DNA from: a virus
Lineage: Duplodnaviria > Heunggongvirae > Uroviricota > Caudoviricetes
DNA: 37,037 nucleotides
IMG/VR virus record: IMGVR_UViG_2541047915_000010
Coordinates: 1 to 37,037 of that record
Strand: one strand, 5' to 3'
This document shows, one piece after another, positions 1 to 37,037 of the stretch. Both the position numbers and the translations under genes were made by a program. A model generated the notes under the pieces. The model made no database searches and was not told where the DNA came from. It saw nothing but the letters and a program-made list of their open reading frames with translations. How positions within the stretch are numbered: position 1 is the first letter of the stretch; each line of letters starts with the position of its first letter.

Positions 1-56
1 GGTATCCGTTCTGCTGAAGTGTCATGGCGTTGATTTTACGGTGACTCTTCGACAGT

Positions 57-84
57 GAAAAGAAAAAAGGCCGCAGAGCGGCCA
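57..84 (-). terminator. Rho-independent terminator (read on minus strand) downstream of int and the 138-aa ORF
   Basis: Perfect 6-bp stem ggccgc / gcggcc (69-74 and 78-83) with a 3-nt loop; on the minus strand it is followed by a T-run (complement of gaaaagaaaaaa at 57-68). Confidence 0.5.
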
Positions 85-7262: not shown

Positions 7263-8222
7263 ATGAAAATTTGTATCGACGACGGCTCCACCAACATCAA
7301 GCTGGCATGGACTGAGAACGGCGAACGCCGCAACGCCATCAGCCCGAACAGCTTCAAGTCGGAATGGTCTGCGCCGTTCGGTGGCACGCAGCCCGCGAAC
7401 TACATGCTTGATGGCGTGCGCTATGGTTTTGATCCGGTCAGCGATCGCTTTGTCCAGACGACCGACACGCAATACCAGTACAGCGATGTGAATGTCATTG
7501 CCATTCATCACGCGCTGGTCAAATCAGGCATCACACCACAGGAGGTGGATGTGGTTGTCACCCTGCCACTGAGCGAGTATTTCGACACAAACGCACAGCC
7601 GGACATGGCCAACATCAACCGCAAAAAAGCGAACGTTATGCGCCCGGTGGAGTACCAGAACGGCGAGGCATTCACTATCCGTAACGTGCGGGTTATGCCT
7701 GAGTCCATTCCGGCTGGCTTTAAGGCACTGGCTGACATGAGTCCGTTTGAATCCCTGCTGATTGTGGATTTGGGCGGAACCACGCTGGATGTGGCAAAGG
7801 TTCAGGGGCAACTGGCAGGTATCAGCCAGGTGTTTTGCGATCCACACGTAGGCGTTTCTCTGATGGCCGATGCCGTACTGTCAGTGATGGCCACTAACGG
7901 TATGCGCACCAGTCACCACATCGCCAATACCATTATCGAACATCGCCATGATGAAGCCTGGCTGCGCCAGCACATCCACAATGACGCGCATTACGCCAGC
8001 CTGATGGCGGTTATTCGTGAAAAGGAAGAAACACTGAAACAACGCGTGATCCGCGCGCTGGCGGTTTTTTCGGGTTACGGGCGGGTGATGGTTGTCGGTG
8101 GAGGGGCGGAGATTGTGGCACCCGCTATCCGCGAAGCCTGCGGAGTTAATGCGACTTTCATCGCGGACGGGGTGCCACAGTTTGCTCTGGTTAATGGGCT
8201 GTACGCAATGGACAAGGAGTAA
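7263..8222 (+). CDS. parM: Actin-like segregation ATPase ParM/StbA (type II partition)
   Basis: 319 aa; N-terminal phosphate-1 motif MKICIDDGSTNIKLAW and DLGGTTLD, VGGGAE motifs; strong collinear similarity to plasmid R1 ParM as I recall it; RBS AAGGAAA upstream. Confidence 0.85.
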   Translation: MKICIDDGSTNIKLAWTENGERRNAISPNSFKSEWSAPFGGTQPANYMLDGVRYGFDPVSDRFVQTTDTQYQYSDVNVIAIHHALVKSGITPQEVDVVVTLPLSEYFDTNAQPDMANINRKKANVMRPVEYQNGEAFTIRNVRVMPESIPAGFKALADMSPFESLLIVDLGGTTLDVAKVQGQLAGISQVFCDPHVGVSLMADAVLSVMATNGMRTSHHIANTIIEHRHDEAWLRQHIHNDAHYASLMAVIREKEETLKQRVIRALAVFSGYGRVMVVGGGAEIVAPAIREACGVNATFIADGVPQFALVNGLYAMDKE

Positions 8223-8226
8223 ACCA

Positions 8227-8538
8227 ATGACGACACCAACCAGACGGATAAGTTTCTATCTGAAGCCTGCGGCCGTCAAGAACGAAAGCGAAGCATGCGC
8301 CTGGCTGGACAGCCTTACACCAGAAGCCCGCAAAAGCGGCCAACGCGTGGCTTTTCTGGCCGGGCTGGCACTTCTGAAAATGAATCCAGCAGAGGCTTAC
8401 CGACTGGCTGCATGGGCTGACGATGAGGCGTTATCAGTGACACAAACCAGGACAGAATGCCCCGCGTCACAGCCAGTATCAACCGCACAGATAACCAGTC
8501 AGATGGCCGGAAATATCCGGGCGTTATTTCCCGAATAA
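8227..8538 (+). CDS. parR: ParR/StbB-like centromere-binding adaptor
   Basis: ORF 8092-8538 trimmed to the ATG at 8227 (AAGGAG RBS 8 nt upstream); 103 aa; RRISFYLKPAAVKNESEACAWLDSLTPEARKSGQRVAFLAGLAL parallels the R1 ParR N-terminal RHH region; directly downstream of parM. Confidence 0.75.
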   Translation: MTTPTRRISFYLKPAAVKNESEACAWLDSLTPEARKSGQRVAFLAGLALLKMNPAEAYRLAAWADDEALSVTQTRTECPASQPVSTAQITSQMAGNIRALFPE

Positions 8539-33190: not shown

Positions 33191-36100
33191 ATGATTGGAC
33201 AATTTTTAAGTGCAACAGAGATTTTAGCAAAGAACTATGTTCGTAATAAAATGGTTAAAAATCCATTTTATTCGAATTTAAAATGGAATTTTATTGAAAA
33301 AAACATCATAAGATTAACATCCTCACCGGTTAAATCAGTACTTTGCATATCAGCTTTTTCATTTGTACTACTTTATGTTGGATATTTAAACGAATTATTT
33401 ATAAAAAATAATCTTTTACATTATTTCCCGTTTAGGCATTCATTAACCGAATGGCAAACAACCATTTTAAGTGGCCAATTGACAATTATTGGTATTGTAT
33501 ACCCCCTTGTTATAGGTTTAGTAAGTGTCTTATTCCAAAAAAAGGCAGATAGAAAAATAGCCCAAACTGCTTATCAGCGTTACTCAGGATTCATGCTTGC
33601 TGGACTCAGCGGGCTTTTCTTATCAGGATTTATACTTCTCAGTGTACTAATTAAAACTGTCTTTGGAAGTTATCTTTATGGTATAGCTTGTCTAATCAGC
33701 ATATTATGGCTTTTGATAAACATAGTTCTTTCTATTTGGTTCTTTATCGTGAGTCTTGAAATTCTTGATGATGTAAAACGGCAAATAATTATAAAGCGAT
33801 ACATTGCCTTCGAAATAGTAATGCCCCATATTTGTAACAAAATCTCAGCCAAGCTTAGGTTATACCCTATCTATCAAAAACATAACTATTCAAATTTAGA
33901 AATCAAGCAAGCCGATTACAAAGGAGAATACATATCTGTGGCTAGCGGTTATTCTAAGGAAGATGAGTTAAGTTTATATCACCGTCCTTTTCAACTTACT
34001 CTTAATCTTATTAATTGCCAACTAAAAAAGAAGAATCATTTTGCGTCATTTGTCATTGGTGATAATCGTGCAAAAGAAACAGAATCCACGGGTAAGATAC
34101 TTTTTAGCGTTAAAAATATCAAACCAGACAGCTTATTAATAAAAATACTTAAGCAATGTTTTTATAGGGCTCCGATTAAAGGAGGAGATTTTTCCGTAAG
34201 TCTTACAATGCAGGCTATAACAGCAGATACGTATATGTATCTGCGGGATTCTGATCTCATTAGTTTTGACGATGCTATCTCTGCATTAATTAATAACTTT
34301 AATAATCTCTGCGATTTGTATTTTTTTCAAGATGATAATACCAACAATAACTTCTTACTGATCACTACAGAATTATTTGAACGGAGTTTTCAATATGAGT
34401 TTTCAGATGAAGTTTATAAAATATCAAATAATTCCATGGATAAAATTAATCTTTCTGAAAGATTTTTTGAATTATGTCTTTGGAGCGGAGTGCGTATTAT
34501 CAATAATAGAAAACATCTTATCAGCAATGAACTTTGTATCTATATGGGAATTACTCGTTCACAATGGTCAATATTAACAGAATGGTTCCGAAACAACCAA
34601 TCACTCTTAAATGCCTCGCTTCGTTCACGTTATAATCGTATATTAAGAACCTATACCACTGTTTGGGAGCAATATCAAGAAAGCATAAACTTTCGTTTCT
34701 GCAATACAGAGAATTCAGATTTATTTGAATTATTTTGCAAAACGCAACTACAAGAACTTCCATCGATGATTATTGATGCAACACAGACTCGCGATCCTTC
34801 TACTATTGATACAGCCGTCGATCTTATTAACCGATGGCAGCACTCAATGAATATTGACAGCCATTCGGTAGAAAAATACAGTTACAAAGGCCAGCTTTTT
34901 AACCCGGGTTTTTTCATATCCAAAAAACTAAACTTCAATTCAGACAGAGAGTGGTTCAATATTGCCATCATAAATGCGTTGACTGACATGCGTATATGCA
35001 CATGTCTTTATCTGACATCAAGAATCAATACTTCTGACAAACTAATGACACATTACATTAAACTTATTTTAGAGGGTAAACTTATTGACCAAACCGGTGG
35101 ATATGAAACTCCCACTGAAGAAATTGATAATGCAAGCCAACTAATCAAGATATTAATTAGAATCTGCCTGTGGACATGGTCTGAAAATATGGAGCATAAT
35201 GGGTGGATGAATAGTTTAGCAAGGCGTTTACGTGACTATGATAAAACAGACATGGTGATGGGCAGAGTTTACAGTAATGTTTTTGACTGTGGATTTATTG
35301 ATATGGAACAATCATGGGTTCAGCTATTATTAATTTTTTCTAACAAGAACGATAGCGTATCAAAAGAAATAAAAGAAGCAATAGAAAACAACTATATAAC
35401 ATATCGTGAGAAGCAACGACTCATTGGAGTATTATCAAAAATTTGTAACTCCATCGAATACACTAAAATCAAGCTGACTTTAACATTGGACGATCTCCAA
35501 ACAAAAAAAGAAAACTTAAGAAAGTTGCTTCAAGAGCATATTAACATGCTAAAGAAAGATCTTGATATGAGACTTCAGGATGCTGCCATAGATGTACATC
35601 GACTAGATAGCACTGCACGTAAAACATCAGAACATCTTCGTAAACGCATCAAGAAAACGCTCCCTCTTTCACTTTTCAAATCTATTGATTTTAAGCAGGC
35701 TAGCGATTGTTTCACAAAACATAAGATATCTATTAAGATAGATAAAGAACCGTATGCCGAAGGAATAGAATCCATCCCTTATATCAATGAAGGTGATATT
35801 CAAGCAGACTTAATTCTCAAGGACATCCAGAGAATAATACTTTCAAATTTATTTAGCACTGGCTGTTCGCAACATACCGTAATAGAAGATTTCAATATGT
35901 TGATTGATCACATAAAATCATCTGCTGACTTGGCTGGCAAACTGGTTCTTGTGATGAGTAAAGAGATCTTTCAGCAATATAATCGTATGCTTTTCGATAA
36001 TCCCAACCTCAGAGAACTAATGAGAAAAAATGATGATGGCTCTATGAACATAACTACTGAATCCGGTACCTGTAAGGTTTACTTCTTACCATTTGTTAAT

Positions 36101-36310
36101 CAACCATTTTCTCTTGTGGTAAAGGATAACTACTTCACTAAATTAATTATTAGAGAATATGATAATAATAAGTTAGTAAATGTCACTTCAGAGAATATCA
36201 AAAGTGACTCAGATAAATTCAAGCTAACTCTTAACTATGAGTTGAATATAGTATTTGAAGGAAACGCTGATTTAAAAATAGCTCACTCGCAAAGAGTGAC
36301 ATCAGAATAA
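33191..36310 (+). CDS. Large uncharacterised membrane-anchored protein (N-terminal 4 predicted TM helices plus a soluble domain of about 850 aa); cargo gene between D and ogr
   Basis: Uninterrupted 1039-codon ORF in a strongly AT-rich segment (Lys/Asn/Ile-rich); hydrophobic helices at roughly aa 50-66, 91-116, 132-154 and 162-192; no catalytic motif recognised by eye. Confidence 0.8.
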   Translation: MIGQFLSATEILAKNYVRNKMVKNPFYSNLKWNFIEKNIIRLTSSPVKSVLCISAFSFVLLYVGYLNELFIKNNLLHYFPFRHSLTEWQTTILSGQLTIIGIVYPLVIGLVSVLFQKKADRKIAQTAYQRYSGFMLAGLSGLFLSGFILLSVLIKTVFGSYLYGIACLISILWLLINIVLSIWFFIVSLEILDDVKRQIIIKRYIAFEIVMPHICNKISAKLRLYPIYQKHNYSNLEIKQADYKGEYISVASGYSKEDELSLYHRPFQLTLNLINCQLKKKNHFASFVIGDNRAKETESTGKILFSVKNIKPDSLLIKILKQCFYRAPIKGGDFSVSLTMQAITADTYMYLRDSDLISFDDAISALINNFNNLCDLYFFQDDNTNNNFLLITTELFERSFQYEFSDEVYKISNNSMDKINLSERFFELCLWSGVRIINNRKHLISNELCIYMGITRSQWSILTEWFRNNQSLLNASLRSRYNRILRTYTTVWEQYQESINFRFCNTENSDLFELFCKTQLQELPSMIIDATQTRDPSTIDTAVDLINRWQHSMNIDSHSVEKYSYKGQLFNPGFFISKKLNFNSDREWFNIAIINALTDMRICTCLYLTSRINTSDKLMTHYIKLILEGKLIDQTGGYETPTEEIDNASQLIKILIRICLWTWSENMEHNGWMNSLARRLRDYDKTDMVMGRVYSNVFDCGFIDMEQSWVQLLLIFSNKNDSVSKEIKEAIENNYITYREKQRLIGVLSKICNSIEYTKIKLTLTLDDLQTKKENLRKLLQEHINMLKKDLDMRLQDAAIDVHRLDSTARKTSEHLRKRIKKTLPLSLFKSIDFKQASDCFTKHKISIKIDKEPYAEGIESIPYINEGDIQADLILKDIQRIILSNLFSTGCSQHTVIEDFNMLIDHIKSSADLAGKLVLVMSKEIFQQYNRMLFDNPNLRELMRKNDDGSMNITTESGTCKVYFLPFVNQPFSLVVKDNYFTKLIIREYDNNKLVNVTSENIKSDSDKFKLTLNYELNIVFEGNADLKIAHSQRVTSE

Positions 36311-36445: not shown

Positions 36446-36706
36446 ATGTTCCGTTGTCCGCTTTGTGGCGCATCTGCCCGTATCCGCACCAGTCGTCCGG
36501 AAAATGATTCAAACACCGTGAGACAAAAGTATTATCAGTGTAACAATCTAGAATGCGGCGTATGTTTCTCAACACTGGAAGCCTTCCACAAATTCACTTC
36601 AAAGCACGTCTCCCCCATTCACTCATCAGAGGGCATCCCGTGGCATGAACTGCCAACTTCACACAGAGGAAACAATCAGATGAGTTTGCCCTTACCTCAG
36701 AATTAA
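36446..36706 (+). CDS. ogr: Late gene activator Ogr (zinc-finger, Ogr/Delta family)
   Basis: MFRCPLCGASARIRTSRPENDSNTVRQKYYQCNNLECGVCF has the CxxC...CxxC arrangement and parallels P2 Ogr (MFHCPLCQHAAHARTSRY...YHQCQNVNCSATF); agagagg RBS. Confidence 0.85.
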   Translation: MFRCPLCGASARIRTSRPENDSNTVRQKYYQCNNLECGVCFSTLEAFHKFTSKHVSPIHSSEGIPWHELPTSHRGNNQMSLPLPQN

Positions 36707-36896
36707 CGAGCAGAATTGCCGGAGTAACAAAAAAGCGATAGATTACGCGCGGGTGCCTTTCGGCTGATGGTCGGAGGGAATACCTGAAGGCCAGATGTGG
36801 AAAGGCCCCGGAAAACATTTTTGTTTAACCGAGGCCCTAACCGTCTACCCTAAGCAAGTGATAGGTTAGCGCCTCCCCGAAAAAGGAGCAAGCGCT

Positions 36897-37037
36897 ATGT
36901 CGCAAAAATCGCTTACGGCCATCACGTTCTGCGTGACGGCAATCCTCATCATCTGGATGCTGCACGGTTCGCTGTGCGAAATACGGATGAGCTTCTGGGG
37001 AGCGGAGTTTGCGGCGTTCTTACAGTGTAAGCAGTAA
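36897..37037 (+). CDS. Hok/Gef-family type I toxin-like small membrane protein
   Basis: 46 aa: MSQKSLTAITFCVTAILIIWMLHGSLCEIRMSFWGAEFAAFLQCKQ; N-terminal TM helix and SLCEIR...AAF, as in Hok (..KSLCEIRYRDGHREVAAF..); AAGGAG RBS 8 nt upstream; the stop codon is the last 3 nt of the window. Confidence 0.55.
   Translation: MSQKSLTAITFCVTAILIIWMLHGSLCEIRMSFWGAEFAAFLQCKQ

Follow-up and report, generated by a model that had tools for sequence, protein, structure and literature searches.

The stretch of DNA analysed here, which we call the window, is 37,037 nt long and ends on the stop codon of a small toxin gene. This gene, hok, runs on the plus strand from an ATG at 36897 to a TAA at 37035-37037, the final three bases of the window, and its product is a peptide of 46 amino acids (MSQKSLTAITFCVTAILIIWMLHGSLCEIRMSFWGAEFAAFLQCKQ). 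The initial annotation of this DNA had proposed that a 46-codon ORF ending at the window boundary, directly after ogr, encodes a Hok/Gef-type type I toxin with an N-terminal transmembrane helix followed by SLCEIR and AAF motifs, and all of these points were borne out. The profile search that it had suggested gave a significant match of residues 7-44 to Pfam HOK_GEF (PF01848; 29.9 bits against a gathering score of 22, E=4.1e-7), PHROG 251 was matched at E=1.3e-22, residues 6-22 at the N-terminus have a mean Kyte-Doolittle value of 2.44, which is in the transmembrane range, and both motifs are present. In a comparison of the toxin with HokA, HokB, HokC and R1 Hok, residues C12, T14, L26, E28, E37 and A39 were invariant, and C12, T14, L26, E28 and E37 are the counterparts of conserved Hok positions given in 10.1101/2025.08.07.668861. 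RefSeq labels the same CDS, carried by identical DNA in E. coli chromosomes, as WP_000078916.1, 'Hok/Gef family protein'. These results confirm 36897-37037 as a genuine member of the Hok/Gef family and exclude a chance ORF; this identification adds little that is new, being already annotated and widespread. That the 46-residue peptide would be toxic is an expectation from its family membership.

The gene upstream of hok matches Pfam Ogr_Delta and is labelled by RefSeq as an ogr/Delta-like zinc finger protein, and an ogr gene lies at most 400 nt upstream of hok genes of the present subfamily in 75 of the 87 related loci. The initial annotation had asked whether the toxin locus is host sequence just outside attR or is carried by the prophage, and had suggested locating attR through a direct repeat shared with the left end. 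This repeat was found: an exact 25-bp sequence at positions 59-83 of the window recurs at 4593-4617 of L001, the complete genome NZ_CP128578, in which the cassette is identical to that of the window and whose coordinates equal the window coordinates minus 32706. Joining window positions 1-83 to the sequence right of the attR core reconstructs an empty site of 175 bp. E. coli genomes contain this site uninterrupted at 100% identity, and in 5118 of the 5426 at least 80% of its length is covered at one place. Since the attR core lies 262 bp past the window end and the empty site lacks the hok DNA, the locus is inside the prophage. The structural module of the window is ~96% identical to that of phage P88 (Xuanwuvirus, Peduoviridae), and in the circular P88 genome hok sits between ogr and the attP/int region. 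It is thus settled that hok is carried by a P88-like (Xuanwuvirus, P2-like) E. coli prophage, as its last gene before attR. In NZ_CP128578 the order is a VgrG/Pvc8-family tail protein gene (a gpD-like ORF), an ORF of 1039 amino acids, ogr, hok, ~300 bp, ihfA, pheT and pheS. The 331-bp region 36707-37037 occurs at 100% identity in five complete E. coli chromosomes, and a homologue of the entire cassette in 1756 of the 5426 complete E. coli genomes.

A contrary reading would make the locus host DNA flanking attR on its outer side, or the ORF a piece of some longer gene truncated at the window edge. Its sole support is the coincidence of the ORF end with that edge, and we reject it as having next to no probability. 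The att repeat and the reconstructed empty site, free of any such DNA in 5118 of 5426 genomes, refute it, and phage records place the locus between ogr and attP/int. Nor does the ORF continue into a longer gene, a possibility that the initial annotation had raised: the TAA is a real stop, the identical 46-residue CDS is annotated in the extended sequence of the complete genome, and it is followed there by non-coding RNA elements and non-coding DNA as far as ihfA. The end of the ORF is the end of the window because the prophage was cut at a gene boundary, and numerous IMG/VR viral contigs end at the same hok stop codon. The cut severs the cassette at that codon, with a 3' stem-loop, an fbi element and a terminator lying within the next ~120 bp (Table 1). 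Prophage callers that cut at gene ends would in this way strip the 3' regulatory third from hok mRNAs.

Table 1. Features of the hok cassette and of the prophage ends. Positions are those of the window; features beyond its end are given with their L001 coordinates.
Feature	Position	Strand	Basis or remark
attL core, AAAGAAAAAAGGCCGCAGAGCGGCC	59..83	.	ihfA terminator; exact 25-bp direct repeat of attR
ogr, late-gene activator of P2-like phages	36446..36706	+	Pfam Ogr_Delta, E=5.3e-14; RefSeq ogr/Delta-like zinc finger protein
Predicted hok promoter	36716..36744	+	-35 TTGCCG 36716-36721, 17-nt spacer, -10 TAGATT 36739-36744; read from sequence
mRNA 5' end with tac-like element, GGGUGCCUUUCGGCU	36751..36765	+	GGGUGCC..., +1 at ~36751; RF01794 model position 1; 15-bp pairing with fbi
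Short upstream ORF	36795..36869	+	24 codons, ATG to TAG, not a canonical mok; stop 27 nt before hok ATG
ucb-like internal element, alternative pairing partner for the 5' end, GUGGAAAGGCCCC	36797..36809	+	RNAalifold consensus
Predicted Sok-like RNA, GCUUAGGGUAGACGGUUAGGGCCUCGGUUAAACAAAAAUGUUUUCCGGGGCCUUUCC	36800..36855	-	~56 nt, +1 G at 36855, end at ~36800; positional homology with SokB and SokC
GAGG, positional homologue of the R1 mok Shine-Dalgarno	36831..36834	+	Rfam alignment; lacks a suitably spaced start codon
Sok-target region, complementary to the 5' tail of Sok	36846..36862	+	predicted to be masked in the full-length mRNA through pairing with a 3' element beyond the window
TAA in place of the mok-like TTG start of relatives	36851..36853	+	-46 from hok ATG; alignment and ORF census
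Predicted Sok promoter	36863..36891	-	-35 TTGCTC 36891->36886, 17-nt spacer, -10 TAACCT 36868->36863; position as in hokB, hokC and R1
Predicted hairpin sequestering the hok RBS, UAGCGCCUCC / GGAG(36885-36888)CAAGCGCUA	36867..36897	+	MFE pairing, GGAG with CUCC
hok	36897..37037	+	46-residue toxin
3' stem-loop, conserved	~37047-37068 (L001 4341-4362)		beyond the window; 4 compensatory pairs
fbi-like element, AGGUCGAUAAGGCACCC	~37086-37102 (L001 4380-4396)		beyond the window
Intrinsic terminator	~37127-37158 (L001 4421-4452)		beyond the window
attR core	~37299-37323, extrapolated (L001 4593-4617)		ihfA terminator, 262 bp past the window end

The leader of the gene was matched by the Rfam model RF01794 ("sok") at 36751-36910 on the plus strand, over the full model length, with 46 bits (E=6.7e-9), which is below the gathering score of 59 and below the 87-118 bits reached by known loci (87 for the R1-type plasmid locus). 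Control searches with K-12 hokC, K-12 hokB and an R1-type plasmid hok showed that this model describes the hok-sense leader, beginning at the 5' end of the mRNA and stopping at the hok ATG, and that it runs antisense to the annotated sokC and sokB genes; the plus-strand match was accordingly rejected as direct evidence for an antisense gene. We read 36751-36910, on the strength of this match, as a divergent hok leader. The predicted hok promoter agrees with the consensus at 8 of 12 positions and was not listed by a generic promoter scan with a threshold of 9/12; the generic scan for promoters and terminators also listed neither the predicted Sok promoter, a weak match to the consensus, nor the Sok terminator, whose hairpin is absent from the list because it is followed by only 3 U. 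Conservation and positional homology, rather than closeness to the consensus, underlie the calls of both promoters and of the Sok terminator: the TAnnnT -10 of hok, for instance, lies at a fixed distance from GGGTGCC in every genomic context, despite differing upstream flanks.

The initial annotation had also suggested folding 36707-37037 to look for the fold-back structures typical of hok mRNAs. That segment alone could not show the closure, since the 5' end pairs with an fbi element situated beyond the window, but on the extended mRNA of 408 nt the fold-back emerged, with a minimum free energy of -174.5 kcal/mol (z=-7.0) and with the first 15 nt predicted to pair with the 3' fbi-like element. 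We then compared 37 distinct homologous loci (71-100% identity) drawn from genomes, viral contigs and E. coli records. Folded individually, all 37 closed their 5' and 3' ends, with 12-16 pairs joining the first 16 nt to the last 30. When placed on the alignment the full-length structure was 93% paired, compared with ~40% for slid controls, with 26 pairs changed on both sides, and it was reached by 0 of 500 shuffles. Within it the tac-fbi helix was 94.7% paired across the alignment, with variation mainly from G-C to G-U, and helix 6, which holds the Sok-target region (columns 101-117 with 342-359, the 3' arm lying just upstream of fbi), had 6 compensatory pairs. The two helices of the hairpin predicted to sequester the hok RBS (helices 7 and 8) were 99.5% and 95.9% paired in the 37 sequences.

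A second predicted state emerged when the 3' end was left out. The RNAalifold consensus calculated without the terminator pairs columns 1-14 with columns 47-59 by almost invariant pairs, and GAGGC (36831-35) with GCCUC (36871-75); when the 3' end was removed in silico, the 5' end re-paired with 36797-36809 in 25-30 of the 37 sequences. The GAGG at 36831-36834 would thereby change partners, pairing with GGCCCC of the ucb-like element in the closed form and with GCCUC 36871-36875 in the consensus and truncated forms. These two modelled states appear to correspond to the closed full-length and open truncated forms of the R1 paradigm (PMC9841398). In thermodynamic models the hok Shine-Dalgarno sequence (SD) did not open upon 3' truncation: its probability of being unpaired was 0.02 in the full-length mRNA and 0.05-0.12 in truncated forms, and rose to 0.37 only with a ribosome imposed at the upstream stop. 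The activation step is accordingly an inferred one, because the modelled SD stays mostly paired after truncation.

An antisense Sok-like RNA upstream of hok, which the initial annotation had expected, is predicted in silico from promoter position, hairpin and strand bias. Relative to the hok start, the layout of the predicted Sok promoter agrees with that of hokB/sokB (TTGCCG-17-TAAGAT), hokC/sokC and R1; its -10 was invariant in 25 of 25 distinct variants and its -35 nearly so. The predicted RNA has a free 5' tail of 13-17 nt, a stable hairpin and a UUUCC 3' end with a U tract of 3 nt, and folds with -22.0 kcal/mol, while the enclosing minus-strand stretch of 76 nt folds with -28.2 kcal/mol (z=-3.6). 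In all 25 variants the antisense strand folded better than its sense mirror (-20.6 to -27.9 against -13.2 to -18.3 kcal/mol), as would be expected if G-U pairs had been selected on the antisense strand. We conclude that a Sok-like antisense RNA is predicted here, its ends being placed by homology with SokB and SokC. The predicted RNA is of the same length class as sokB and sokC of K-12 (57-59 nt) and shares with them the promoter position relative to the hok start and the layout, in which a 5' tail leads into a GGCCUCGG...CGGGGCC hairpin and a U-rich end; it differs from them in the sequences of the 5' tail and the hairpin top, and its U tract (UUUCC) is shorter.

A mok leader, also expected in the 190 bp upstream of hok, did not materialise. 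In the window copy all frames opened by ATG, GTG or TTG, in each of the three phases, end more than 15 nt short of the hok start, and we therefore rejected a canonical mok for this copy; a TAA occupies 36851-36853, where most relatives have a TTG. A census of 93 loci found 53 in which a TTG at -46/-47 opens a frame overlapping hok, 9 whose sole such frame is a long one starting at a conserved ATG at -103, and 28, the window copy among them, in which no upstream frame reaches hok. The short ORF that starts at ATG 36795 has its UAG stop (36867-69) in the anti-SD arm. We did not rely on it as a substitute for mok: this ATG is conserved, but the frame that it opens varies from 1 to 79 codons among close relatives, and the ATG itself is predicted to be base-paired in either RNA state. 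In R1, Hok cannot be made unless mok is translated as far as the hok SD, and premature mok stops abolish it (PMC9841398), and a large recent survey of Hok left mok out because its calling is ambiguous (10.1101/2025.08.07.668861). The toxin peptide nevertheless appears to be under purifying selection, mok-less alleles included: pN/pS was 0.33 overall, 0.26 in mok-less variants and 0.04 in P2-type mok-less variants, where pS was 0.11. With ~30% of loci lacking the frame and the toxin still selected, we tentatively suggest that mok may be dispensable in the present Hok subfamily.

As in hok/sok (parB) of plasmid R1, the cassette encodes a small Hok/Gef membrane toxin behind a leader matched, below the gathering score, by the same Rfam model, and its predicted features reproduce the 5' tac pairing with 3' fbi or an internal box, the GAGGC...GCCUC stem, the antisense promoter overlapping the hok SD and start region and the protective 3' stem-loop (PMC9841398). 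It differs from R1 in that the toxin has 46 instead of 52 amino acids and 28% protein identity, the leader scores 46 against 87 bits, the window copy lacks mok, and the carrier is a prophage instead of a plasmid. The nearest characterised toxin is chromosomal HokA of E. coli, with 43% identity and shared WM..SLCE and AAFL.CK. The HokA family NF007290 is the best NCBIfam match, yet its 34 bits fall so far under the equivalog cut-off of 89 that we assign the 46-residue toxins to a separate subfamily. The hokA leader of K-12 is destroyed by IS150, and no leader comparison was possible there.

This subfamily was found in Escherichia, Shigella, Salmonella, Citrobacter and Klebsiella, and its settings also include lambdoid prophages, between J/lom and tail-fibre genes, and an O157 island. 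The same gene, after ogr and before attP, is P88 gp52 and its equivalents in Chuche, 500465-2, P884B11, PhiR44_2 and Shae_phiSM; these homologues are 93-94% identical in DNA and annotated hok/gef, with allelic differences in the Sok-target/leader segment, and the P88 allele, with an upstream ORF of 19 codons, likewise has no frame reaching hok. The hokW-sokW locus of the Stx2 prophage Sp5 (PMC8621323) is also a hok/sok cassette on an E. coli temperate phage, and the PHROG named 'MokW-like host killing' covers both. HokW, however, is a HokC/D-like peptide of 51 amino acids starting MKQQKAM (text and primer YO-357, PMC8621323), and we rejected identity with it on the grounds of length and N-terminus, 'MokW-like' being merely the name of the PHROG family. 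A match of 83.7% in Stx2 phages proved to be a 46-residue hok of the present subfamily near the tail genes of lambdoid prophages, distinct from hokW.

Taken together, the locus is very probably a genuine hok/sok-type type I toxin-antitoxin cassette of ~445 bp, carried as cargo by the P88-like prophage and explained by an RNA switch. In the full-length mRNA, tac-fbi pairing would hold the molecule closed, with the Sok-target region and the hok RBS both base-paired. If the R1 paradigm (PMC9841398) applies, this mRNA would be stable and inert; slow 3' trimming would take off fbi and switch the leader; the short-lived Sok-like RNA (36855->36800) would pair with the switched leader and lead to its decay; and, once the supply of Sok stops, Hok would be made and the inner membrane depolarised. 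The supply might stop through loss of the prophage, or through a shut-off of transcription by an incoming phage or during induction. Because the window copy has no mok frame, Hok translation would have to begin directly at the strong AAGGAG site of hok itself once the leader has switched, or else receive help from ribosomes that finish translating the upstream 24-codon ORF, the stop codon of which is situated in the anti-SD arm. Control could then be independent of mok and depend on nothing more than Sok and the RNA switch, in which tac-fbi and tac-internal pairing oppose each other and GAGGC competes for the anti-SD, which is a tentative proposal; termination of the short, non-overlapping upstream ORF inside the anti-SD arm is another possible gate that we put forward with similar reserve.

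It could be argued instead that this is a translationally silent, decaying copy in which, for want of mok, Hok is never made. The missing upstream frame, with TAA replacing the TTG of 53 of 93 relatives, the hok SD predicted to be paired in both RNA states and the effect of premature mok stops in R1 (PMC9841398) all fit such a copy, and inactivity has been proposed for the chromosomal hok loci of E. coli K-12; hokA, hokB and hokC are reported to be unable to mediate post-segregational killing, in work as cited in bioRxiv 10.1101/2025.08.07.668861. Decay is difficult to reconcile, however, with an ORF that is intact in all 15 distinct mok-less sequences, with leader variants among them diverse enough to argue for several origins, with the low pN/pS of the P2-type mok-less variants, and with the retention of promoter, tac-fbi, Sok promoter and hairpin, compensatory changes included. 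Moreover, even in the relatives the TTG 'mok' lacks a proper SD, the GAGG being 16 nt upstream, and because of this mok may be altogether irrelevant in the subfamily. We consider a silent copy very unlikely.

Hok cassettes are on record in settings that include the killing of cells that lose the element and the exclusion of lytic phages, as by R1 against T4. For the present cassette, stabilisation of the lysogen through killing of cells that lose the element is the most likely role, although we hold this view weakly; we favour it because the same phage group carries parMR, a homologue of the other stability locus of R1, and in the window parM and a parR-like gene lie at 7263-8538. The same cassette might serve as an abortive-infection or exclusion module, a lytic phage stopping transcription so that Sok decays, Hok kills the cell and the burst of the invader is lost. 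This would suit P2-like phages, which habitually carry defence cargo, and the position of the locus at the prophage end among cargo, beside an AT-rich gene of 1039 amino acids with no assigned function. Against it, a PADLOC search returned no model match for the toxin or the neighbouring cargo, and the survey cited above saw no enrichment of hok near defence systems (10.1101/2025.08.07.668861), and we regard exclusion as possible but on the doubtful side. A role as a lysis helper, with Sok vanishing on induction and Hok damaging the membrane so that progeny are released earlier or in greater number, strikes us as rather unlikely. The hokW-sokW locus, the only prophage hok studied experimentally, doubled the release of Sp5 after mitomycin C (PMC8621323), but the present toxin is not HokW and has HokA as its nearest K-12 relative, P2-like phages already have a holin-endolysin cassette and lysis regulators, and this cassette has its own predicted promoter and lies at the far end from the lysis genes.

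The main value of these results is a clean annotation, in which a prophage type I toxin-antitoxin cassette is placed on the sequence with its predicted promoter, antisense RNA and RNA switch. A literature search found no paper on a hok gene adjacent to ogr in P2-like phages. An enrichment of prophages in hok genes has been reported (10.1101/2025.08.07.668861), and the cassette offers a concrete example of it, with lysogen stabilisation, phage exclusion and help in lysis as possible roles. The mok-less alleles are the only point that may repay experiment: many alleles of the subfamily lack a mok frame, which calls into question the generality of the rule that Hok synthesis is coupled to mok, and if the proposal made here is true they would represent a mok-independent variant of the hok/sok mechanism. 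P88-like phages, for their part, carry homologues of both stability loci of plasmid R1, parMR and hok/sok.

The same subfamily of 46-aa Hok toxins, which brings along a promoter and 3′ elements of its own, also occurs in three further settings in other E. coli genomes (L093-L097): in P2-like prophages at a different integration site, where it adjoins flk; in lambdoid prophages, with the tail-tip/Lom genes on one side and the tail-fibre genes on the other; and in an O157 island, where it adjoins a type B L31 gene. Since homology begins at the hok promoter or just upstream of it, and ends just past the fold-back element of the hok mRNA (fbi) or the terminator, these limits suggest that the hok cassette of this subfamily is a mobile module of about 450 bp. 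The coordinates of the features discussed here are summarised in the table.

Features of the prophage; positions are in the window unless marked L001 (complete E. coli genome NZ_CP128578)
Feature	Position	Strand	Context or basis
ihfA terminator, integration site	59-83; L001 4549-4693		Rfam STnc540
138-aa ORF	190-606	minus	between attL and integrase
ParM/StbA actin-like segregation ATPase, then ParR-like ORF	7263-8538		Pfam; P88 gp17/gp18
1039-aa ORF	33191-36310		between gpD-like tail gene and ogr
RF01794 match	36751-36910	hok-sense	
Variable Sok segments	36812-36829 and 36843-36855		alignment A3 of hok-cassette homologues, columns 60-82 and 96-117

Loci that are more than 93% identical elsewhere carry either of two unrelated sequences, UUAAACAnnnnUGUUUU or GUUAACGUUAAAGUUGAC, at the top of the hairpin of Sok, the predicted antisense RNA; the Sok 5′ tail, together with its target in the hok leader, comes in at least six versions. 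In the aligned sequences antisense specificity looks to have been diversified in cassette fashion at these two segments, whose versions also differ in length by 1 nt, shifting the upstream reading frames. In K-12 hokC, K-12 hokB and an R1-type hok (L003, L004 and L005), the Rfam model RF01794, which goes by the name 'sok antitoxin', aligns with the sense strand of hok, starting at the 5′ end of the mRNA and stopping at the hok ATG. Its matches lie antisense to sokC and sokB as annotated; a match to this model is a marker of the hok leader, not of the strand of the Sok gene.

The hok stop codon, at the right edge of the window (37037), is the exact end of dozens of IMG/VR viral contigs (L013-L092). 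When prophage boundaries are cut at gene ends in this way, the hok mRNA is deprived of about 120 nt, with its fbi and its terminator, and the attR arm is lost as well. The prophage is integrated in the ihfA terminator, and the att core lies inside a match of the Rfam sRNA model STnc540 to the ihfA 3′ region (41 bits, against a gathering score of 38). At the left end, the sole match of the 138-aa ORF was PHROG 14142 (E=8.6e-70), with none found in Pfam.

Upstream of ogr, the 1039-aa ORF has a GC content of 0.30-0.36, compared with 0.53-0.55 for the flanking tail genes, and was present in only 4 of the 87 related loci; it looks like a recently gained AT-rich cargo gene. RefSeq names it 'MFS transporter', and searches against Pfam, NCBIfam, PHROG and PADLOC returned zero matches. 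The cargo slot that separates the portal gene from replication gene A holds the parM/parR-like pair, whose ATPase matches StbA_N (1.8e-82) and the ParM C-terminal domain (6e-69). This pair is common to the same P88-like phages as hok, and homologues of both stability loci of plasmid R1, parMRC and hok/sok, are therefore found in one phage group.
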